Part shown: one piece after another, positions 8,226 to 22,958 of the stretch
Position numbering within the stretch: the stretch's first letter is position 1
How the letters are laid out: every line of letters begins with the position of its first letter
Source of the DNA: a virus
Reading direction: 5' to 3' (one strand)
IMG/VR virus record: IMGVR_UViG_3300017971_007886
Coordinates: 28,967 to 92,966 of that record
Length of the DNA: 64,000 nucleotides
Made by a program: the position numbers and the translations under genes
The notes under the pieces: model-generated
What the model was told of the DNA's origin: nothing
The model's input: only the letters and a program-made list of their open reading frames with translations
The model's database searches: none

Positions 8226-8453
8226 ATGGGTAGCCTAGCACCACGGAGCCGGAAGGGTTTCATGGTGCTGATGAATGTGCCGATGCCCAAGAGCGGGCGT
8301 TGCATGTTCTGTAAACGTACTGTCCCAATTAAGGCCAAAGTCATAAGCTGTGATCATGCCCCACCTACTGGATTCGCCTGTGCTGAGTGTACTCGCCAGC
8401 GATTCCTTCCTACCGATGGCTCGCCCGAGCCCGACTTCTTCCGAAAGAGCTAA
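8226..8453 (+). CDS. small zinc-finger protein
   Basis: CMFC ... CAEC; ends just before the TGT-like gene. Confidence 0.55.
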   Translation: MGSLAPRSRKGFMVLMNVPMPKSGRCMFCKRTVPIKAKVISCDHAPPTGFACAECTRQRFLPTDGSPEPDFFRKS

Positions 8454-8455
8454 CG

Positions 8456-10531
8456 ATGACGCGAATCTACCTTGCCGGTGCGGAGAGTGGTCCGCTCTCA
8501 GATGAGCTAGAAGAGAACAACGTCAAGCACATCCTCTACTCCTATTTCTGGTTGTCGAAGAAGGATCGGGAGAGGGTGATGGTCGAACGCATAAAACGAG
8601 GTCGGGAGAATGGTATCAAATACCTGCTCGACTCGGGTGCGTTCACCTACCTCGATGCCCAACAGGCGGGCTCGCGACTCCCCTTCAACGTCTACAAGAA
8701 GAGGTACTTTGACTTCATTGCCAAGCACGGTGAGTTGTTCGAGGCGTGCGCGGAACTCGATGTCGAAGGTGCTGAGATAGACGGGATGGGTACAATCTCC
8801 CTCGACCAGGTGTGGCACTGGCGACAACAGATGTTCGAGGCTAACCCGAAAGCCACCATCATGCCCGTCTGGCACTTCGGTACTCGTACCCAAGAAGAGT
8901 GGAACACGCTTTGTGAAGATCCTCTCGTCACCTACCTTGGAATCGGAAGTACCCACAGCGGCGCAGTCTTCAATCAAGAAGGAGTATTCCACAGGCTCAT
9001 TGCGAAGGCCCATGCCCACGGCAAGCGGGTACACGGAATGGCCGCGACCAAGGTGAAGACGCAGTTGAAGAAACTCAAGTTCGACAGCGTAGACAGCGCC
9101 TCCTGGCTATCTGCCCAGAAGTTCGGTACGACGTTCATCTTCAAAAACGGGCAATGGATAGTTCTGGACAAGTACAAGAAGAACCAACGCAGAATCCATC
9201 GACGCCACTTCACCAAGATCGGCGTGGACTACCAAAAACTCGAAGCAGACAAGAGTAGCGAATTACGCCATGCAGCGATATTGGCGTGGAGAGACCTGGG
9301 AGAGTGGCTGATGAAGAAACGGGCCAAGATGCACCAAGACCTGGAAGACCAAATTGCGGCTACACCTCAAGTAGACCCAGAAGTGCCACAGGAGAAGAAA
9401 GTGCCAGCTACGAAGAAGGCCAAGAAGTCCAAAAACAAGGTACCAATCAAGGTACCCGCAAAGGTACTTTCAGGGGTACCGGCACCCCAAAAACCACCTC
9501 GCGGGAAGGCAAAATCGAGTGGTGAAGTCTTCAAAATACCGTGTCCCAGTTTTGGACAAAAAGCAGACGACGGTGCGGTAAAAAGGGGCCGAAGGGGTCG
9601 AAAACGCACATTTGCGCGGACCCCAATTACGACCAGCTCGCGGGATGGAAAACAGACTCCCAAGGTCAACGATAAAGCCACTTCTATGGATAAGGGAGAC
9701 CCTACAGAAAAGGCCCCTGATAAAGGTACCCCGTATCTCGAAGAGGTACCCCAACCTACGCTACCCCAGGAGCCAGTGTCTCAGGACGCACTTGCTACGG
9801 TAGAGCAGCCAGATAGCACACTTCCTACCTGGAAACGCCCTGATTATCTACACAAGACCGAGAAGCAGAGGTCGCTACTCCATGATCTACCACAACTGAA
9901 GTGTGGGCTGTGCTCCATAGGTACTGATTGCCCGTCCTATGATGAGTCACTACAACAGTGTGCCTTTGCTGAAAGGCTCAATGCGTTTCCAGTACGTGAT
10001 GCGGACAATCTACTGGGTGCTATGGAGTACATTGTAGATGTCAACAAGTCGCGGCTATGGAAACTACTTCTCATGGAGAACATGATCGAAGGCGGTATGC
10101 CAAGCGAACGTGCTACGCAACTTTCTGAGATTGTACTGAACCAGCTCGAACGGCTCAGAGAACAAAGAACCATGATGGAAGGCGCTGCTGTGAAAGTCAA
10201 TTCTGGACCCGGTATTCTAAGCTCCATATTTGGGGTCTCTGGAAGGGGGTCTGTGGGGGGTACGGCAGTACAGGTAAATATACAGAACGCCCCAGCTCGC
10301 GGCGCAGATGTACGTGATGATAATCCTGCCAATAGTGGGATTGTAGTGGAAGCACAGACAGTACCCCATAATGTACCTACAGAAGAGGGTACCCCTACTG
10401 CGGCTACTGATGCGCAAGTAGTAGAAGCTGAAACAGAGAATGAAGTACCTAGTTCTGGCGAATCAGGTAGCAAAGCTGACACAGGTACCACAGGAGAGGA
10501 CGCCCCCTCGGGCAAGGGGGTGGGGGGTTAA
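8456..10531 (+). CDS. TGT/DpdA-like guanine transglycosylase fused via a disordered linker to a Cys-cluster/helical C-terminal domain
   Basis: TGT-barrel motifs LLDSGAFT, ELDVE, MPVWH, LGIG, VHGMA, DSVDSASW; C-terminal CGLCSIGTDCPSY...C; queC genes nearby. Confidence 0.7.
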   Translation: MTRIYLAGAESGPLSDELEENNVKHILYSYFWLSKKDRERVMVERIKRGRENGIKYLLDSGAFTYLDAQQAGSRLPFNVYKKRYFDFIAKHGELFEACAELDVEGAEIDGMGTISLDQVWHWRQQMFEANPKATIMPVWHFGTRTQEEWNTLCEDPLVTYLGIGSTHSGAVFNQEGVFHRLIAKAHAHGKRVHGMAATKVKTQLKKLKFDSVDSASWLSAQKFGTTFIFKNGQWIVLDKYKKNQRRIHRRHFTKIGVDYQKLEADKSSELRHAAILAWRDLGEWLMKKRAKMHQDLEDQIAATPQVDPEVPQEKKVPATKKAKKSKNKVPIKVPAKVLSGVPAPQKPPRGKAKSSGEVFKIPCPSFGQKADDGAVKRGRRGRKRTFARTPITTSSRDGKQTPKVNDKATSMDKGDPTEKAPDKGTPYLEEVPQPTLPQEPVSQDALATVEQPDSTLPTWKRPDYLHKTEKQRSLLHDLPQLKCGLCSIGTDCPSYDESLQQCAFAERLNAFPVRDADNLLGAMEYIVDVNKSRLWKLLLMENMIEGGMPSERATQLSEIVLNQLERLREQRTMMEGAAVKVNSGPGILSSIFGVSGRGSVGGTAVQVNIQNAPARGADVRDDNPANSGIVVEAQTVPHNVPTEEGTPTAATDAQVVEAETENEVPSSGESGSKADTGTTGEDAPSGKGVGG

Positions 10532-12918: not shown

Positions 12919-13424
12919 TGCCTGGCATCTGGGACCAAGTAGAGGCCCTTGTGGCAGAAGGGAAGGGTGCGACGATCACGTTGACCGAGGCGCACGAGGT
13001 CAAGATCCCGTACCAGCGAAAGAAGCTCCCGAAGAAGTACGTCCACAAGGACCGTCCATGGGAAACCTACGACGGTTGCACGCGAGGGACAGGCCGCCCT
13101 CGGTGCCAATGGAAAGGGTGCAACACCTACCTGAAGAAAGATCAACCGGTGGCGTGCTGCATCGAACACGAACAGAAGATTGCCGACTACTGCATACGGA
13201 TGTTGGCCGTGATACGGTACCGTATAGTGGATCGGTTGGACGACTACGACGAGTTGCTTCACGGTGACTCGGTGGTAGCCAAGTTCTTGGAGGAATTGAA
13301 AGATGGCACACTACTTAACGTCAATGGAAACTCTCAACCTCCTTCAGCAGGAGACGAAGGAGGACCAGAAGAGGAACCAACGGAGACAGCAAGCGATAGC
13401 CCTGGTGTCGAGGACGACGGGTAG
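12915..13424 (+). CDS. Cys-containing hypothetical protein
   Basis: CQWKGC...ACCIEH; coupled to upstream stop. Confidence 0.65.
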   Translation: MMPGIWDQVEALVAEGKGATITLTEAHEVKIPYQRKKLPKKYVHKDRPWETYDGCTRGTGRPRCQWKGCNTYLKKDQPVACCIEHEQKIADYCIRMLAVIRYRIVDRLDDYDELLHGDSVVAKFLEELKDGTLLNVNGNSQPPSAGDEGGPEEEPTETASDSPGVEDDG

Positions 13425-13557
13425 GCCCCAGCACGACTTCGGTGCGCGTGATTGGGCCTTGGTCCAAGCGCATGAACAACGAATGGAGAAGGCCGACAAA
13501 CCACCGGCCCCTCGCAGGGCCACGTTCTCCATCGACCCGAGCGGGAGAGCCGTATGA
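13303..13557 (+). CDS. hypothetical protein (overlaps upstream gene by ~120 nt)
   Basis: GGAGG upstream; ATGA overlap with YkgJ gene. Confidence 0.45.
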   Translation: MAHYLTSMETLNLLQQETKEDQKRNQRRQQAIALVSRTTGRPQHDFGARDWALVQAHEQRMEKADKPPAPRRATFSIDPSGRAV

Positions 13558-14132
13558 AGATCGAAGCTGACAGACCTGAACGAGTCCTAGCCAACTTGCG
13601 TGGGATTGAGATTGACCCAGAAACAGATGCAGCCAAGATCAAGTGGTCTCACTACGAAGGCACTCCGGGTGGTGGAGTGATCGAGGTGGTCGAGGAGCAC
13701 ACCTACACGTTCGATGACCCCGTACTTCGCGGGATCACGAAAGAGCTTCACGACTACCTGGTCGAGTGTATCGAGAGGGACGAGCAACAGCCTCACGAGG
13801 AGAACTCGTGTGAGACGTGTACGACTCAGAACTGCTGTTCGAGCGACTTCTCAGAACCACTGTGGTTGACCCAGAGCGACATCGAAATGTTGGAGCTGGA
13901 TGACGACCAGGTGTGTTTCCTCGGTGAAGGCCACTGGGCCGGAAAGGGAGGTGGCAGTTGGGATGGGAATGACGATCCAGCGTGCAGCGACATCATTGGG
14001 TACATGGTCCGTGATCCGTGGTGCCCTCTTCTCGAAAATGGGAAGTGCTCGAAGTATGGTGTTCGCCCGCTTTCGTGCCGACTTGGCCCAGAGCGGAATT
14101 GCGGAATCAAAGACCTAGATAAGGAGACCTGA
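13554..14132 (+). CDS. YkgJ-family (CxxCxxCC) Fe-S/Zn cluster protein, related to FliB
   Basis: CETCTTQNCC, LTQSDI, WCPLLENGKCSKYGVRPLSCR match the YkgJ pattern. Confidence 0.8.
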   Translation: MKIEADRPERVLANLRGIEIDPETDAAKIKWSHYEGTPGGGVIEVVEEHTYTFDDPVLRGITKELHDYLVECIERDEQQPHEENSCETCTTQNCCSSDFSEPLWLTQSDIEMLELDDDQVCFLGEGHWAGKGGGSWDGNDDPACSDIIGYMVRDPWCPLLENGKCSKYGVRPLSCRLGPERNCGIKDLDKET

Positions 14133-14134
14133 TC

Positions 14135-14833
14135 ATGGCAACAGTCGCGTACAGCGGTGGGATCGACAGCACCGTCCTCATGTACGAGTTGGCCTCTCAA
14201 GGCCGCCTCAACCTGGCGGTACTCTGCAACTTCGGACAGCCATCGTTTGATCGACAGCTTCGTTGTGCGGAGTATCAGATCGCCAAACTCGAAGAGCATG
14301 GCGTGGATGTCCACTTCCGGGTGGTGGAGTTCAAGACGCCCGAGGAGTTCCAGGTCAAGGAGGCTTCTCCGTTCTTCTCGATGCGGCCTCTGAACCCACT
14401 GGCCAAGGCACCAAAGAAAATGAAGGACGCCATCGCGTATCGACTCGATAACTTCGCCATCACCCCAGGACGGAACGCTTTCATGGTCTTGATGGTTGGG
14501 ATGGTCGCGGCGGCCTTGGAGACGAACCCGGCAGTGGTCACGGCGTACCAGTACGAACAGGACATCTGGGATACGCAGGACACCATCTCAGGGGACGAGT
14601 CGCCCTCGTTCTGGTTGAAGATGGGCATGGTTTTGGAGACGGCCTTCGAGGTACCTGTGGCGCTTGAGAACCCGTTCTTGGATCGTCATTGGGACAAGGA
14701 GCGCATCATCCGTGAGGGTATCGAGTACGGAATCGACTTCGCACACACGATGTCCTGCGAATTTGAGGAGCCCTGCGGCGAGTGCGCCCAGTGCCAACTG
14801 GTCAAGAAGACGGTTGCCAAAACCAGGGGCTAG
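14135..14833 (+). CDS. divergent QueC-like PP-loop ATP pyrophosphatase
   Basis: YSGGIDS, NFGQ, TPGRN, ENPF, TMSCEFEEPCGECAQC; lacks YPDC and the Arg after the last Cys. Confidence 0.8.
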   Translation: MATVAYSGGIDSTVLMYELASQGRLNLAVLCNFGQPSFDRQLRCAEYQIAKLEEHGVDVHFRVVEFKTPEEFQVKEASPFFSMRPLNPLAKAPKKMKDAIAYRLDNFAITPGRNAFMVLMVGMVAAALETNPAVVTAYQYEQDIWDTQDTISGDESPSFWLKMGMVLETAFEVPVALENPFLDRHWDKERIIREGIEYGIDFAHTMSCEFEEPCGECAQCQLVKKTVAKTRG

Positions 14834-14958
14834 AACGTAATATGGAGTCTGAACATGGCGTGCGGGCTCTTGGAGCGAAAACGTAGACCTCCAATCCCAG
14901 GCCAAAACTGAGCTGGAGTCAAAACAACAACCTCCACTCAAACAGAAGGAGATGCCAA

Positions 14959-15072
14959 ATGGCACGAGGAAAGAAGAGAGCCTACAAAATGACCACCAAG
15001 GGCAAGCGAACCAAGGCGTTCAAGCCCCTCTTCGGAAAGAAGAAGGTCAAGGGCGGCAAGGGCGGCAAGTAG
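14959..15072 (+). CDS. 37-aa Lys/Gly-rich micropeptide 1 (MARGKKRAYKMTTKGKRTKAFKPLFGKKKVKGGKGGK)
   Basis: GAAGGAG 7 nt before ATG; paralogous to next peptide with mostly synonymous differences; below ORF-track cutoff. Confidence 0.85.
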   Translation: MARGKKRAYKMTTKGKRTKAFKPLFGKKKVKGGKGGK

Positions 15073-15075
15073 GTC

Positions 15076-15186
15076 ATGGCCCGTGGGAAGAAGACGCTGG
15101 TGAAGCGTCTCAAGACCAAGGCCGGGGCCGTACTGCGCCGACTCTTCGGCAAGAAGAAGGTCACGGGAGGTAAAGGCGGCAAGTAG
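15076..15186 (+). CDS. 36-aa Lys/Gly-rich micropeptide 2 (MARGKKTLVKRLKTKAGAVLRRLFGKKKVTGGKGGK)
   Basis: Starts 3 nt after peptide 1 stop; same N- and C-terminal motifs. Confidence 0.85.
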   Translation: MARGKKTLVKRLKTKAGAVLRRLFGKKKVTGGKGGK

Positions 15187-15212
15187 CGCCTGAACCAAAC
15201 GTGGGCTGCTCT

Positions 15213-15252
15213 TGGTAGTTCTGACGCCGAGACTTGAGAACTGCCGCTTTCC
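15213..15252 (+). terminator. hairpin between peptides and terL (possible terminator/attenuator)
   Basis: GGTAGTTCT ... AGAACTGCC 9-bp stem followed by GCTTTCC. Confidence 0.35.
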
Positions 15253-15268
15253 CGATTAAGAAGATGCC

Positions 15269-17005
15269 ATGTTCAATGACCAAGTTGCTGCCCAAGATAC
15301 CCAACCCGAGTTACTGAGAACCTGCCCCCTCACAGACAAAGAGCTGATCGACAAGGTTCTGATCTTCGTCGAGGAGTTCACGCGACCAAAGCGCGTCGGT
15401 AAGGCAGACCTCTACACCTACCAGAAGGTGTTCGCCCGCCGCATCATCGAATCGGTGGTACTGGCCGAAGGCGACACCATCACTGCTCTCTTCTCTCGAC
15501 AGGCCGGAAAGACTCAGACCGTTGCCGACGTTGCGGTCTCGCTTTGCGTCATCCTCCCTGTCTTGGCCCGAGAGTTCCCCGACGACACCCGGCTCAAGTC
15601 GTTCTCTGCCGGGTTCTGGGTCGGTATCTTCGCACCAGTCATGGACCAGGCAGGTATCTCGTTCAGTCGCATGAGAGCCCTGGCCTCCTCACCAGAGGGT
15701 GAGGCTGTGTTCCGTGACCCAGAGATCAACATCGAGTTGACCACTGACCGTGGCGATGAGCTTGGGTGGAGTACCGGTAGCGTGGTGCGATCCAAGTCTG
15801 CGAGCCCTGACACACAGATCGAGGGCAAGACCTACCACCTCATCCTCTGCGACGAGGCCCAGAAGCTCCTTCGGTCCAAGGTCGAAAAAGAGATCATGCC
15901 GATGTTGGCCGCGACCGCAGGTACGATGGTCAAGATCGGTACTGCCTGGGAGAGTCGCGGCGGCTTCCATACAGACATCCAGTACAACGTTCAAGCGTAC
16001 AGCGACGGTGGCAGACGGAACCATTTCGAGTTCGACTACAAGATGGTGCTCGCGGAGAAGCGGGCGGCCTACGACCGGGATGGTAACCCGTTCCACCTGA
16101 ACTACGAGAAGTACATCGAGAAGCAGATCAAGCGACTCGGCGGCACTGAGAATGAAGAGTTCAAGATGAACTTCATGCTCAAGTGGTTGGAGAGTCGTAT
16201 CATCGCCATCAAGGCATCGACCCTCATGGCCGGTCGAGAGAAGCGCCACATTGGCGAGCTGCCCATGCCGAGGAATGGTCATGTCCTGGTTGCGGGGCTC
16301 GACGTTGCGAAGTCGAACGACAGTACCGTCCTTACGCTCACCGACATAGACTTGGACAATCCCATCGTGGACATCTCCAAATACGGCACACCTCACGACA
16401 AGATCGGTACCATCCAGGGAGAGAGCGAGCAGAACTACTTCTACATGAAGCGAGTGGTCGCGTGGTTGGAGTTGCAAGGGACGTTCGAGGGTGACACTGG
16501 CCAGTACCAACGTGTGCTCGACTTCCTGATGAGGTTCCCTCCTTTGTCCATGTTCCTTTGCGACGCGACTGGCATGGGCGATCCCGTGTACGAGCGGTTC
16601 ACGGTGTTGCTACCTGACATCGACGTTCAGCCGTTCAAGTACAGCGCCCCCTCGAAGTCCGACCTCTACAAATACTACCTGCAAGAGTGGTCCTCTCGTC
16701 GGTTCAAGTATCCTGCCGATGCCGCTGCTCAAGAAACGCCTGAGTTCCAGAAGTTCGAGACACAGCATTTGGACCTAGACAAAATCTCCTCTGGCAACTA
16801 CATCTCGTGCGTAGCCCCCGAAGATGAGCATGACGACTACCCGGACTCGGCGGCCCTGGCGTGTTGGGCCGAGAAGATTCTCAAGAAAGACGCTATGCCA
16901 TTTATCGAAGTGAGTGGTGTACCTGATGGTGGAGCGCGTGATAGGAGTCAGCAATCCTCCGGTTATAGTAACCGGCAGATGCGGTACATGAGAGGACGAA
17001 GATGA
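15269..17005 (+). CDS. terL: terminase large subunit
   Basis: Q-motif LYTYQ, Walker A SRQAGKT, Walker B LILCDEAQ, nuclease GLDVAK/DST, CDATGMG, HDDYPDS. Confidence 0.95.
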   Translation: MFNDQVAAQDTQPELLRTCPLTDKELIDKVLIFVEEFTRPKRVGKADLYTYQKVFARRIIESVVLAEGDTITALFSRQAGKTQTVADVAVSLCVILPVLAREFPDDTRLKSFSAGFWVGIFAPVMDQAGISFSRMRALASSPEGEAVFRDPEINIELTTDRGDELGWSTGSVVRSKSASPDTQIEGKTYHLILCDEAQKLLRSKVEKEIMPMLAATAGTMVKIGTAWESRGGFHTDIQYNVQAYSDGGRRNHFEFDYKMVLAEKRAAYDRDGNPFHLNYEKYIEKQIKRLGGTENEEFKMNFMLKWLESRIIAIKASTLMAGREKRHIGELPMPRNGHVLVAGLDVAKSNDSTVLTLTDIDLDNPIVDISKYGTPHDKIGTIQGESEQNYFYMKRVVAWLELQGTFEGDTGQYQRVLDFLMRFPPLSMFLCDATGMGDPVYERFTVLLPDIDVQPFKYSAPSKSDLYKYYLQEWSSRRFKYPADAAAQETPEFQKFETQHLDLDKISSGNYISCVAPEDEHDDYPDSAALACWAEKILKKDAMPFIEVSGVPDGGARDRSQQSSGYSNRQMRYMRGRR

Positions 17006-17430
17006 AGCCAGCAGACGTATTGAACCTACTCCCCAGGTACCTGGTTCGAGCGGCCCGCATCAACAACATCATCCCGTCTGATCGCCCCAAGCAGTACAAC
17101 GAGACAGCCCAATACGAGCACATCACTCGGAACATTTACGTTGTACCCAACCTTCCGGCAGAGGTCATGCGCCGGTCGATGATTCACGAGATCGCCCACG
17201 CCCTTGACGACAACTTCGGTGTCGGGCACTACTTTGGAGAATCACCAGCCTGGGCAGAGTTGTCGAGGCGAATGTATGGCGACGTGTCTGTGGTCGAAAC
17301 CTTCGCTGAGAACATGGCGACCCACTTGTTGGACCCCACGTTCTCTCGCATGGTGAATCCATCCGTTGCCAAGTTCATGGATGAAGCGTTGACCTATTTG
17401 CAGATCATGTTCAAAGGAAAGACCCAATGA
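17002..17430 (+). CDS. zincin-like HEXXH metallopeptidase-domain protein
   Basis: MIHEIAHALD with downstream ETFAE third-ligand motif. Confidence 0.7.
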   Translation: MKPADVLNLLPRYLVRAARINNIIPSDRPKQYNETAQYEHITRNIYVVPNLPAEVMRRSMIHEIAHALDDNFGVGHYFGESPAWAELSRRMYGDVSVVETFAENMATHLLDPTFSRMVNPSVAKFMDEALTYLQIMFKGKTQ

Positions 17431-18095
17431 CCAAAGAAGAGAGCAAGTTGGTATTCTGTTCGTGTAGTGGTGGCCTCGATTCGAGCGTGATGGTCCAAAA
17501 GCTCGAAAATGAAGGGTACTACCCGATCCCCATCTTCATCGACTACGGCCAGAAGACGGCAATCGTCGAGTTCGACCGCCTTCGCCAGGTGTGGCCGAAG
17601 TGCAAACTCATTCGATTCGACCTCATGGGTGGCATCCGGTGTTGGGCCACCAATCCGGGGGACCAGTTCATCCCCACCCCGAAGCGTGAACGCGATTTGA
17701 TGTTCATCCCTGGCAGGAACATCTTCTTCCTGACGAGGCTGGCCGTCGAGGCGTACTACTTCCACGCCCATTACCTCGCACTCGGGAACAACACCGATGA
17801 CCTCACATGCGGAGACTGCAAGCCTCCGTTCTTGGAGTCGATGGCCAAGTCCCTCACTCTCGGCATGTCCACCCGTGATGCGGGCGAGTACGAGTACGAG
17901 ATCCTTCAACCCTTTGGTGACATGAGCAAAGCCGACATCGTTCGGTACGGCCATGACCACGGGGTAGCCATCGAGAAAACATGGAGTTGTTACGATTTCC
18001 AAGAGAAGCATTGTGGGGTATGCTGGAACTGTGTGGAAAGGAAGCACGCCTTTGAGAAGGCGGGCGTTGAAGACAAGACAGGCTACATAGAGTAG
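17427..18095 (+). CDS. queC: 7-cyano-7-deazaguanine (preQ0) synthase
   Basis: SGGLDS, DYGQ, IPGRN, GDC.PPF, PF..MSKADIV, TWSCY...CGVCWNCVERKHAF. Confidence 0.9.
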   Translation: MTKEESKLVFCSCSGGLDSSVMVQKLENEGYYPIPIFIDYGQKTAIVEFDRLRQVWPKCKLIRFDLMGGIRCWATNPGDQFIPTPKRERDLMFIPGRNIFFLTRLAVEAYYFHAHYLALGNNTDDLTCGDCKPPFLESMAKSLTLGMSTRDAGEYEYEILQPFGDMSKADIVRYGHDHGVAIEKTWSCYDFQEKHCGVCWNCVERKHAFEKAGVEDKTGYIE

Positions 18096-19067: not shown

Positions 19068-19367
19068 ATGGCATGGGCACCAGGCGGTTCCATCCCCTCG
19101 GGAGCGCGGGGCGGATTCAGAACCACAGTCAAGACGATCAGCACCATGATCGACAGAGGCCGGAAGCGGATCTCTGCGAGCATGGAAGCCCTCAACATGG
19201 GGAAGGCGTCGGCGTGTACCACTCGGATCACGCCTGCCGAGAAGGATGCACCACCCGCGTTGCCGGGTAGTGGCGAGTACCAACCTCAACAGATGCAGAC
19301 CCTACCGGGTACTGACATCAGGAACTTCGACCGCAGTTCTCGTGCGAAGACTGGAAAGGTGGGATGA
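19068..19367 (+). CDS. basic hypothetical protein
   Basis: GAGG RBS, packed. Confidence 0.7.
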   Translation: MAWAPGGSIPSGARGGFRTTVKTISTMIDRGRKRISASMEALNMGKASACTTRITPAEKDAPPALPGSGEYQPQQMQTLPGTDIRNFDRSSRAKTGKVG

Positions 19368-19368
19368 T

Positions 19369-19587
19369 ATGGCCATCTCAAATGACCAGCTCGACAACTG
19401 GTTCACGTACCACAAGCCAGGCCCAGGCGACGAAGCGAAGTACGAAACGATGCGGGCAGCGGGACGTGCCCTCGCCCAGGCCATCGTGGACAACACGCCT
19501 GAGTCAGCCGATCAAACCGCAGCCGTCCGAAAAGTGAGGGAAGCGGTGATGACCGCGAACTCAGCTCTGGCGTGTAGCGGGAGGTAG
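19369..19587 (+). CDS. small helical-hairpin protein, Acb2/Tad1-like family (tentative)
   Basis: NWFTYH.P...KYE.MR...LA..I...P.S..Q..A.RK.REA.M.ANSA.A pattern. Confidence 0.55.
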   Translation: MAISNDQLDNWFTYHKPGPGDEAKYETMRAAGRALAQAIVDNTPESADQTAAVRKVREAVMTANSALACSGR

Positions 19588-20681: not shown

Positions 20682-22784
20682 ATGGCAATGACGTTCTTCG
20701 CGGACTCCTCCGGTGCGACAGGAGGAGCAGTACCCTTTCAGAGGGTGATCGACCCCTCGAAGTTGGGGATGTACCTCAACCTTGAGCAGGCCGAACTCCT
20801 TCGACTCCAGAGATACCGTCAACACTGGCGGTTCTACTACAACAAGCACTGGGACTTCGCCCGCGAGGACGGTGACCCGCTCGTCACGTTCAACTACTTC
20901 AAGAAGATCATCGACAAAGGTGCTGCTTTCCTCATCTCGCGAGGGTTCAACATCAAGGTACCGGAGCCCTTAGCCGGGTACACGGCACCTTTCCTTCGCG
21001 AGGTGTGGAAGAAGAACAACGGTGGCAGGTTCATTTGGGACATGGCCCTCATGGGCGGTGTCACAGGTGATTGCTTCATCTTGGTCACGTACCAACAGCC
21101 CACACCGTTGGAGAAGCGCATCTTCCCGTTCGCCCAAGGTAGGATCGTTCTGAACCTACTCGGTAGCGAACAGGTCTTCCCCGACTTCAACCCGCTCAAC
21201 AAAGAAGAGATGCGGTCGGTGCGGATTGAGACTCTGTACTATGACGCACGAGCGGTGTCCGAGGTCGGGAAAGAGGACCGCAGTTCCGAAGGCCGCCAGT
21301 TGAACATTCGGCGGTACACCCAGATCATCACACCGACCACCATCACCGAGCACCTTCAAGGTGAGGAGCCTCGGATTCGTGAGAACGTGCTGGGTGAGAT
21401 TCCTCTCGTCCACATCAAGAACCTTCCGGCACCCAACGAGCCCTACGGTCTCCCCGATTGTCTCGAAGTGATTGACGTACAGCGAGAGCTGAACGAGAAG
21501 GCGACCGACGTGTCCGACGTTGTGAACTACAACGCGGCTCCCATCACCGTCATCACAGGTGCCAAGGCCAAACAGCTCGAACGTGGTCCTCGACAGATTT
21601 GGTCGGGCCTTCCCGAGCGTGCGAGCGTGTTCAACCTCAAGCTGGAGGGAGACCTCGGAGCGGCCAAAGAGTACATCGACATGGTGAAGGAAGTGATGCT
21701 GGAGTTGTCGGACACTCCCGAGGGTTCGCTTGGGAAGATGATGCCGATCTCCAACACAGCCGGTGTAGCCCTTCACATGCAGTTCGGTCCTCTCATGGAG
21801 AAGACCATCAAGAAGCGGGCACAGTACCAGCCCGGTCTTGAGAGGGTGAACTACTTCATCCTTCGCATCGGCCACGTACTCGGTATGATCGATCTCCCGT
21901 TCGACATCGACAAGCTGACAGGCGGGAAGATCGCCTTGGTGAAGACCAAGGATGGGGAAGCGTCATTGCCTCGTGCATACCAGATGAACCCAGCCAACTT
22001 CGACTTCCTGGCCCCGATGGACATGCGGCTCAAGTTCCTTCGCGAGTACAGCTTCGGGAAGGAGATTCGAGAGGAGCCGTATTGGAAGATCGTGGCCGAG
22101 CATCGCGGCGTGTCCAGGTCGTTCTGGGATGTCGAGCCCGAGTCCACGATTGAGAAGAAGGCAGAGAAGAAGCGGTCGGAAGAGAACGCCCAGGCAGCCG
22201 AGAACAACAAGGCCGTCGCCCCATCCAAGGAGGGGGTCAAGCCCGGAGTCGCCAAGCAGCTCCCCAAAGAGGTGGAGCCTGGAAAGATTCCGACCTCTCA
22301 GATCGACATTCCGCCCGAGCCAGAACGTGCTACCATTGTAGTGCGGAAGTACGATTCCAAGACAGGGCACCTTGTTGACGAGGAGGAAGTGACGAGAGAC
22401 CTGGTTCCATGCAGTACGTCACTCGAACGAGTGGAGTACCTGAATCCATACGACAGCGAGATCGCCTTCAATGATCCGCTGCCGAAGGATGTCCACCTCC
22501 AAGCCCAACTCTACAAGCAGTACAAAGAGATGGGGATCGTATCGAAGCAGTGGATTCAAGAACACATCCCAGAGATTGCCCCCTACATTGCCGAGATCGA
22601 GAAGCAACTCGAACGGGAAGCCTCGATCAGTCCTGCCCCAGACATCGCCAGCCCTGCGGAGACCGAGTTGCAGGGTGACGAGGACGCCCGTGGTGCGAAG
22701 GCAGCAAGCCACCCGCCCTCTGGGAAAGAGACCCAAGGGGACATGGGCATGAAAGAGCGCGGGTTGAACACCGGGCGTTCATAG
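20682..22784 (+). CDS. portal protein (SPP1 gp6-like) with large insertion
   Basis: VTFNYFKKIIDK, GGVTGDCF, ENVLGEIPLVHIKN..PYGLPD, SNTAGVAL, FNDPLPKD; position between terL and scaffold/MCP. Confidence 0.9.
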   Translation: MAMTFFADSSGATGGAVPFQRVIDPSKLGMYLNLEQAELLRLQRYRQHWRFYYNKHWDFAREDGDPLVTFNYFKKIIDKGAAFLISRGFNIKVPEPLAGYTAPFLREVWKKNNGGRFIWDMALMGGVTGDCFILVTYQQPTPLEKRIFPFAQGRIVLNLLGSEQVFPDFNPLNKEEMRSVRIETLYYDARAVSEVGKEDRSSEGRQLNIRRYTQIITPTTITEHLQGEEPRIRENVLGEIPLVHIKNLPAPNEPYGLPDCLEVIDVQRELNEKATDVSDVVNYNAAPITVITGAKAKQLERGPRQIWSGLPERASVFNLKLEGDLGAAKEYIDMVKEVMLELSDTPEGSLGKMMPISNTAGVALHMQFGPLMEKTIKKRAQYQPGLERVNYFILRIGHVLGMIDLPFDIDKLTGGKIALVKTKDGEASLPRAYQMNPANFDFLAPMDMRLKFLREYSFGKEIREEPYWKIVAEHRGVSRSFWDVEPESTIEKKAEKKRSEENAQAAENNKAVAPSKEGVKPGVAKQLPKEVEPGKIPTSQIDIPPEPERATIVVRKYDSKTGHLVDEEEVTRDLVPCSTSLERVEYLNPYDSEIAFNDPLPKDVHLQAQLYKQYKEMGIVSKQWIQEHIPEIAPYIAEIEKQLEREASISPAPDIASPAETELQGDEDARGAKAASHPPSGKETQGDMGMKERGLNTGRS

Positions 22785-22793
22785 GAGTAGGCA

Positions 22794-22958
22794 ATGAAGA
22801 AGACAAAGAACACGGAGTCAGTCGGAAAGAAGGGTATGGCAATGGGCCATGCCTGTGGGATGACCCACGGGTCGTGCGGTACAACTCCGCACGGATGCGG
22901 TCTGACCAAGCCCATGTCTCATGGATGTTCTGGCGGTAAGAAGAAGCCCAAGAAGTGA
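22794..22958 (+). CDS. 54-aa His/Cys-repeat basic micropeptide
   Basis: AGGAG RBS; MKKTKNTESVGKKGMAMGHACGMTHGSCGTTPHGCGLTKPMSHGCSGGKKKPKK; fills gap exactly; not in ORF track. Confidence 0.75.
   Translation: MKKTKNTESVGKKGMAMGHACGMTHGSCGTTPHGCGLTKPMSHGCSGGKKKPKK

Follow-up and report, generated by a model that had tools for sequence, protein, structure and literature searches.

Twin lysine-rich micro-genes ahead of the large terminase gene of an uncultivated tailed phage with 7-deazaguanine genes

Can two tandem, lysine-rich open reading frames of fewer than 40 codons each be real genes, and what might their products do in a tailed phage? The question is raised by a pair of ORFs just upstream of the large terminase gene (terL) in a window of 64,000 nt, which is the whole stretch of DNA analysed here and spans bases 28967-92966 of an IMG/VR virus record that is 92,966 bp long and was judged 98% complete. 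The window is part of a ~93-kb tailed-phage genome; it also encodes the HK97-type capsid of such a phage, and nearly every gene of this phage lies on the plus strand. An earlier note had described the pair as unannotated, histone-tail-like micropeptides apparently under purifying selection.

Twin micro-genes and their expression signals

14814-14843, plus strand: weak sigma-70-like promoter-like site (TTGCCA, 18 nt, TAATAT; consensus scan)
14945-14951, plus strand: Shine-Dalgarno (SD) sequence GAAGGAG, 7 nt before the ORF1 ATG (4-mer SD scan)
14959-15072, plus strand: micro-gene A (ORF1), 37 aa, net charge +16, predicted disordered (codon score, GC3)
15028-15072, plus strand: C-terminal conserved block, copy 1, LFGKKKVKGGKGGK plus stop (direct repeat, motif scan)
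15076-15186, plus strand: micro-gene B (ORF2), 36-aa paralogue of A, net charge +14 (codon score, GC3)
15142-15186, plus strand: C-terminal conserved block, copy 2, 89% identical to copy 1 in DNA

Coordinates and translations of both ORFs, with their common ends, agree with the earlier note, as does a recount of their composition: ORF1 has 13 Lys and 3 Arg (16 of 37 residues), ORF2 has 10 Lys and 4 Arg (14 of 36), and neither has an Asp or Glu. The two lie in one reading frame with the junction TAG-GTC-ATG, and each peptide begins MARGKK and ends LFGKKKV(K/T)GGKGGK, while the middles (16-17 residues) are almost unalignable between A and B. In DNA terms, the C-terminal blocks form a 45-nt direct repeat with 89% identity, the copies lying 114 nt apart and differing at five bases, four of them at codon position 3. 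A degenerate version of the motif occurred twice in the window and not once in 100 shuffles and, among ORFs of at least 25 aa in the 93-kb genome, only four reach 20% Lys, A and B being two of them. The description of the pair as unannotated is only loosely true, since both had been called as genes before: predicted-protein sets of JGI/IMG, ENA and Logan contain the exact peptides, on four contigs.

The strong ribosome-binding site previously ascribed to the first ORF is indeed present: its AGGAG is optimally spaced from the ATG, and SD sites are in general use in this phage (a 4-mer SD was seen at the corresponding position in 68% of phage genes, compared with 15% of random positions). ORF2 has no clear SD, and its ATG lies 3 nt past the ORF1 stop, an arrangement usual for translational coupling, which suggests that ORF2 may be translated by stop-start coupling to ORF1. 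Near-identical 12-mers, AAGGAGATGCCA (14946-14957) and AAGAAGATGCCA (15258-15269), form the initiation regions of gene A and terL, respectively. The promoter-like site, which lies at the end of the QueC-like gene described below and precedes ORF1 by 115 nt, is weak (one found, 0.2 expected), and an Rfam search of the micro-gene region returned no family. Read-through of the TAG into one fused protein was rejected: TAG is an ordinary stop in this phage, where it ends 31 of 91 plus-strand genes.

Evidence that the pair is coding

Peptides A and B are very probably the products of real protein-coding genes, a view that rests on four independent lines of evidence, namely the differences between the paralogues, a codon model, codon-position GC and the SD site. 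Within the 60 bases (20 codons) encoding the common termini, the copies differ at eight positions, of which seven are synonymous changes at codon position 3 and one is a position-2 change (K to T), as counted before; MARGKK itself is kept across three synonymous changes. Nei-Gojobori counting gives dS 0.88, dN 0.022 and omega 0.025 for these termini, and the chance of drawing at most one non-synonymous codon from eight random substitutions is about 2-7e-4, although the 7:1 ratio is partly ascertained because the 20 codons were chosen as conserved. The three-base periodicity of the differences is real despite this ascertainment and is unlike what a conserved DNA site would give. The ORFs therefore behave as tandemly duplicated paralogues with purifying selection on their termini.

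The codon model was trained on 44 long genes of the same phage. ORF1 and ORF2 scored 0.72 and 0.64 bits/codon, respectively, around or above the 95th percentile of real genes (in-frame windows of real genes: median 0.39, 95th percentile 0.68; off-frame windows: 95th percentile 0.10), and each of the five remaining frames across the micro-gene region scored zero or less. GC3 is 0.81 in both ORFs compared with 0.70 for phage genes, and their GC at the three codon positions (0.41-0.58, 0.46-0.47 and 0.81) matches the gene pattern of this phage (0.58, 0.42 and 0.70).

A non-coding origin, in which one frame would be open by chance within a duplicated DNA element, for instance a (pac/cos) repeat recognised by the terminase, appears highly improbable. 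A 45-nt direct repeat just upstream of terL and the absence of peptide homologues would both fit such an element, but a protein-binding DNA site would not place seven of eight differences at codon position 3. Codon usage and GC3 are moreover typical of highly expressed genes of the phage, an SD site and ATG are in place, both frames stayed open while the middles diverged, and Rfam has no match to the region.

Two other frames were considered. The overlapping +2 frame at 14952-15173 (73 aa), whose conservation the earlier note had named as a finding that would speak against the micro-genes, shows one synonymous and 11 non-synonymous codon differences together with off-frame codon scores, and was rejected; its ATG at 14952 abuts the SD with a spacer of 0. 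The synonymous count had also been taken to argue for selection on the peptide, and here the periodicity stands while the count alone is not frame-specific, since a 66-aa proline-rich antisense ORF (14982-15182, minus strand) has the same wobble positions and a count of six synonymous to two non-synonymous differences; codon usage decides in favour of the sense frame. We give next to no credence to that ORF being the real gene: its codon scores of -0.09 and -0.04 bits/codon lie among those of off-frame windows and fall short of the 5th percentile for real genes, its start is a TTG, it runs opposite to essentially all genes in this part of the genome, and antisense frames as a whole were rejected on codon scores and non-synonymous changes.

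Single-sequence AlphaFold (AF2) models were made for both peptides. The ORF2 model has one helix at residues 6-24 (mean pLDDT 72, about 86 at its centre) followed by a disordered Lys/Gly tail, while the ORF1 model has no secondary structure. The amphipathicity of the ORF2 helix is moderate: its hydrophobic moment, 0.56, does not clearly surpass that of shuffled sequences (p = 0.06). Considering that the only predicted helix falls in the non-conserved middle of ORF2 and that ORF1 has none, the models indicate that selection acts on the charged, flexible termini and not on a fold.

A packaging and 7-deazaguanine neighbourhood

8387-10531: TGT/DpdA-like protein (phrog_887, E 1e-41)
13303-13557, plus strand: 84-aa protein ending ..FSIDPSGR..
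13554-14132: CxxCxxCC (YkgJ-type) protein (Pfam 21.3 bits, under the 23-bit cut-off)
14135-14833, plus strand: divergent QueC-family PP-loop ATPase, here QueC1 (Pfam PF06508, E 1.4e-14)
15269-17005, plus strand: terL (phrog_2, phrog_9), 82 nt downstream of gene B
17002-17430: 142-aa protein directly after terL, with weak HEXXH-peptidase similarity
17427-18095: better-conserved, more canonical QueC (Pfam)
19246-19587: Acb2/Tad1-like protein, 113 aa (Pfam PF24729, E 7.6e-8)
20682-22784: portal (Pfam, PHROGs)

Judging from the gene order around them, the peptides are encoded at the head of the packaging and structural block, inside what reads as a 7-deazaguanine DNA-modification module. QueC1 ends 125 nt upstream of ORF1; its 44.6 bits fall far short of the cut-off of 150.3 bits set for the NCBIfam QueC equivalog model, and it retains the SGGxDS motif and four Zn-binding cysteines. 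QueC1 orthologues at 25-30% identity are found in at least seven related phage lineages. Within the 13303-18095 region, terL lies between the two QueC paralogues of the window.

The 84-aa protein at 13303-13557 is a possible small terminase; its counterparts in relatives (..IDTSGRKP..) adjoin a small basic ORF or directly precede terL. That ..IDTSGRKP small protein has an HTH-like segment, and across the phage clade the 7-deazaguanine genes (QueC1-like, QueC and QueF) are enclosed by it and terL. The twin peptides themselves were rejected as a small terminase, being 36-37 aa compared with about 100-200 aa with an HTH and an oligomerisation helix, and having no Pfam or PHROG match.

The 142-aa protein after terL matches Peptidase_M78 at E 0.011 and TIGR04338 at E 0.064, and seems to be a zinc-peptidase-like protein attached to the packaging genes; homologues follow terL in loci L003-L006, L009, L010, L013 and L015. 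The Acb2/Tad1 hairpin protein, encoded between terL and the portal gene, is likely a cyclic-nucleotide sponge (anti-CBASS/Thoeris).

Homologue searches and related lineages

No homologues of the peptides were found in the collections searched, so the comparative test is limited to the two paralogues. A degenerate DNA motif search of viral contigs found none beyond the pair itself, and neither did a word-indexed search of 5.8 billion protein clusters (lengths 30-40 and 41-132) in which the query was both ORFs joined by read-through of the TAG. A profile HMM run against 1.84 billion cluster representatives returned only both peptides and one repeat protein (E 6e-4), back-translated patterns gave 306 matches in JGI metagenomes with none confirmed, and an HMM scan that covered every ORF of 131 terL-related loci gave none. 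There was no match among PDB sequences, an ESM Atlas search with the peptides gave uninformative scores of 0.78, and Pfam, PHROGs, NCBIfam and PADLOC held no family match for either peptide. Neither matched the ultrabasic mini-protein families phrog_7595, phrog_16028 and phrog_6437 at E up to 10; those families differ in phage clade and in module, the present one carrying 7-deazaguanine genes.

The search for terL homologues yielded 560, the closest being P0001 (78% identity) and P0002 (73%), both on short Logan contigs. Among isolated phages, those closest in terL (Bacillus BCD7, Streptomyces BRock and LuckySocke, at ~35% identity) have no similar small gene. The next relatives, with 44-54% terL identity, have a conserved module in the order ..IDTSGRKP.. 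small protein, small basic ORF, QueC1-like paralogue, QueC, QueF, terL and 142-aa protein; the 7-deazaguanine module was seen in the window (13303-18095) and in loci L003, L006, L007, L008, L014 and L015.

In all seven of the other lineages (L003, L006, L007, L008, L014/L140, L015 and L016) the QueC1-like paralogue is adjoined by a small ORF of 44-93 aa (187 aa in L016). These ORFs are mostly basic and acid-poor, most start with 'MA' and have a Gly-rich tail, and GC3 is that of real genes in most (for example, 0.96 in L007 and 0.86 in L008). MAFFT and hhalign detected no similarity between them and the twin peptides (hhalign probability 0.4%). They are positional analogues only, and the lineages are not independent. 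A scan for further QueC1-like loci gave only two new and more distant ones, with a small basic ORF in neither.

Lys-rich, acid-poor ORFs longer than 40 aa in the 131 terL-related loci are all on the terL strand (9 of 9, with none on the other). Such Lys-rich ORFs lie just before or after terL in L012 (1922-2152 and 4263-4529), L070 (1959-2243) and L125 (530-727), and in L012 and L009 Lys/Gly-rich proteins are encoded between a QueC and terL.

The 187-aa ORF of L016 (1577-2140), Gly/Pro/Arg-rich and located between the QueC1-like gene and terL, is an internal tandem duplication with halves starting M(S)KFLKTFGGASTS, which echoes the tandem pair in the window.

Several terL relatives are 830-950 aa long and contain intein/LAGLIDADG domains (PF14890, PF14528, PF05203/4), examples being L013 1226-4021 and L015 2447-5194 and the proteins P0003, P0037, P0041 and P0053; terL in the window has no intein.

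A possible role in genome packaging

The role that we favour, tentatively and as possible rather than probable, is that the peptides are cationic, nucleic-acid-binding and charge-neutralising, and serve genome packaging. Built on what is observed at the locus (signs of coding, tandem duplication, selected termini and gene neighbourhood), such a scheme would run as follows in an uncultivated ~93-kb tailed phage that would modify its DNA with 7-deazaguanine. Genes A and B would probably be transcribed together with terL, A being translated from its own strong ribosome-binding site and B by stop-start coupling, with selection presumably holding the two ends (MARGKK and LFGKKKVxGGKGGK) and leaving the middle free to vary. 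The peptides would bind nucleic acid electrostatically and could act as counter-ions or condensers of the genome while the terminase packages it or afterwards, and they might be carried into the capsid; their presence in the virion and the timing of their expression are inferred. In this capacity they would be analogous, in a dsDNA phage, to the J/VP8 proteins of Microviridae, which are small, basic and DNA-binding. For such a role speak the location of A and B on the terL strand, 82 nt upstream, the similar translation-initiation sequences, the terL-strand placement of all nine Lys-rich ORFs in the related loci, and the small basic ORF found within the packaging/Que module of the seven other QueC1-bearing lineages; against it, the collections searched hold no homologue, low-complexity basic ORFs can arise easily, the positional analogues in relatives have no profile similarity to the peptides, and the peptides lack a hydrophobic C-terminus of the J type.

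In tailed phages, host polyamines and metal ions are generally taken to do most of the neutralising of packaged DNA, and the literature searches made here did not find a small basic condensing peptide of a tailed phage. If the packaging role is correct, the pair would amount to a genetically encoded counter-ion, like microvirus J or the adenovirus core peptides, in viruses where none is established. Even on an ordinary reading, the locus exemplifies how genes of fewer than 40 codons can be validated from sequence only, through the codon periodicity of paralogues and codon usage. Strongly basic small proteins encoded close to terL are not in themselves new among phages. New here are three features: the duplicated pair is an orphan under clear selection at both termini, it lies within a combined 7-deazaguanine/packaging module, and its positional partnership with a divergent QueC recurs.

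The nearest functional analogue of the peptides would be protein J of phiX174, a phage-encoded accessory to genome packaging of 38 aa and charge +12, annotated 'DNA condensation, core protein'. J and the twin peptides (37 and 36 aa) are of one size class, highly basic and acid-free, and their N-termini are alike (MSKGKKR in J, MARGKKR in the peptide). At the same time, J comes from ssDNA phages that have no terminase, whereas the peptides come from a tailed phage with terL, portal and an HK97-type capsid; the C-terminus of J is aromatic/hydrophobic and buried in the capsid (..LWYVGGQQF), whereas the peptides end GGKGGK; and the peptides are Lys-rich, unlike the Lys/Arg/Pro/Gly mix of J. BLASTP of the peptide against J gave 11/28 identities at a pairwise E of 0.036, with no Pfam or PDB-sequence match. 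Membership in the Microviridae J/VP8 family was therefore rejected on sequence, hydrophobic anchor and virus type. J/VP8 proteins guide DNA into the procapsid and remain within the capsid (PMC11281519).

The likeness to histone tails that the earlier note had seen is compositional only, since no histone or protamine family match was found and the peptides are Lys-rich rather than Arg-rich. The peptides resemble histone tails in a Lys/Gly-rich composition, GGK repeats and an N-terminal A-R-x-K; towards the tail motifs ARTK and GKGGKG the likeness is one of low complexity, confined to MARGKK and GGKGGK. For comparison, H3 tails have ARTK.. and H4 tails GRGKGGKGLGKGGAK; protamine-like and adenovirus core peptides offer further parallels, protamines being Arg-rich. 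Unlike histones, the peptides have no histone fold or family match, and their host is prokaryotic, with no tail-reading machinery identified. Histone membership (PF00125) was rejected, considering that Pfam gave no match at E up to 10, that 36-37 aa is too short, and that the AF2 models have at most one helix. The packaging-module context and the QueC-family neighbour may nevertheless keep alive the ideas of a virion core peptide and of a modification substrate.

Host-directed peptides or QueC1 substrates

A different and rather less likely explanation is that the peptides are real and directed at the host, as RNA- or ribosome-binding, anti-defence, or membrane-active cationic amphipathic peptides. 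The predicted amphipathic helix of ORF2 followed by a Lys/Gly tail would suit such a role, as would the Acb2/Tad1-like anti-defence gene 4 kb downstream, which indicates that counter-defence genes are interspersed in this region; according to a review, host processes are reportedly common targets of phage small proteins. But ORF1 has no predicted helix, and the helical middle of ORF2 is the part that is not conserved, the conserved parts being the highly charged termini. The hydrophobic moment does not clearly exceed that of shuffled controls, and a position in the packaging module beside terL is atypical of early host-takeover genes.

It seems quite unlikely that the peptides are instead acceptor or carrier substrates of the adjacent QueC1, a scheme in which QueC1 would activate 7-carboxy-7-deazaguanine by adenylation and link it either to the free amine of the peptide N-terminus (Ala2 once Met is removed) or to a lysine side chain; the TGT/DpdA-like enzyme might then act on the conjugate or, alternatively, the YkgJ-like neighbour might modify the lysines. 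QueC-family enzymes can modify the flexible N-terminus of a partner protein: Cap9 and QatC attach 7-amido-7-deazaguanine to, or act on, the partner N-terminus, a TGT-like enzyme then binds the adduct, and acceptors are known to carry the motif M-G-(G/T)-S, in which Gly2 is essential (bioRxiv 10.1101/2025.04.06.647259; PMC13279940). The present locus resembles CD-NTase/Cap9 and QatB/QatC in that a flexible tail is encoded beside a divergent QueC-family enzyme, with a TGT-like enzyme in the genome. Consistent with a substrate role are the gene order (YkgJ-like, QueC1, peptide A, peptide B), the position of QueC1 far under the canonical QueC cut-off with its PP-loop and Zn-binding cysteines kept, the second, more canonical QueC and the TGT-like protein elsewhere in the phage, the conservation of MARGKK at the protein level through synonymous change, and the small, mostly basic ORF beside the QueC1-like paralogue in all seven other lineages.

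Several observations weigh against this. Residue 2 is Ala, followed by Arg, in both copies (M-A-R-G-K-K), not M-G-(G/T)-S; the neighbouring small ORFs of relatives have no detectable similarity to the peptides; and QueC1 matches neither QatC nor other defence-type QueC-family models (NCBIfam, PADLOC). Moreover, kinship among the lineages that have a QueC1-like paralogue means that finding QueC1 together with a small ORF in each is not independent evidence, and the YkgJ-like match is below cut-off, with the gene absent from all relatives. Cap9 and QatC also differ in belonging to bacterial defence systems and not to phages, and in using as acceptor the Gly2 of MGGS/MGTS on a folded 30-kDa partner, compared with a free 37-aa peptide starting MARGKK here.

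A still more doubtful extension is that the twin peptides and the small basic proteins of sister phages are dedicated QueC1 partners, coupled to 7-deazaguanine carboxylate, with the conjugate used by the TGT/DpdA-like transglycosylase. If so, the conjugate could tether cationic peptides to phage DNA or target modification during packaging, and the deazaguanylation chemistry recently found in type IV CBASS and QatABCD could have its counterpart, or its evolutionary origin, in such a phage system. As QueC-family enzymes attach deazaguanine to protein termini in bacterial immunity, the pair makes an inexpensive, testable candidate for deazaguanine chemistry on the phage side.

Other lysine-rich proteins of the phage

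A 184-aa protein encoded ~2.4 kb before the window start (G000:C1:26031-26585) begins MARQAK and has AKKAPKGT-type repeats, with an H1/AlgP-like Lys/Ala/Pro-rich N-terminal half and a structured C-terminal half; with it, the phage encodes several Lys-rich proteins. Directly after the portal gene, a 54-aa Lys/His/Cys-rich ORF (22794-22958, plus strand) is preceded by a GGAG SD 6 nt upstream. Its ends are Lys-rich (MKKTK.. and ..GGKKKPKK) and its centre has four H-x-C-G-type motifs, and it may be a metal-binding micro-protein of the head module.
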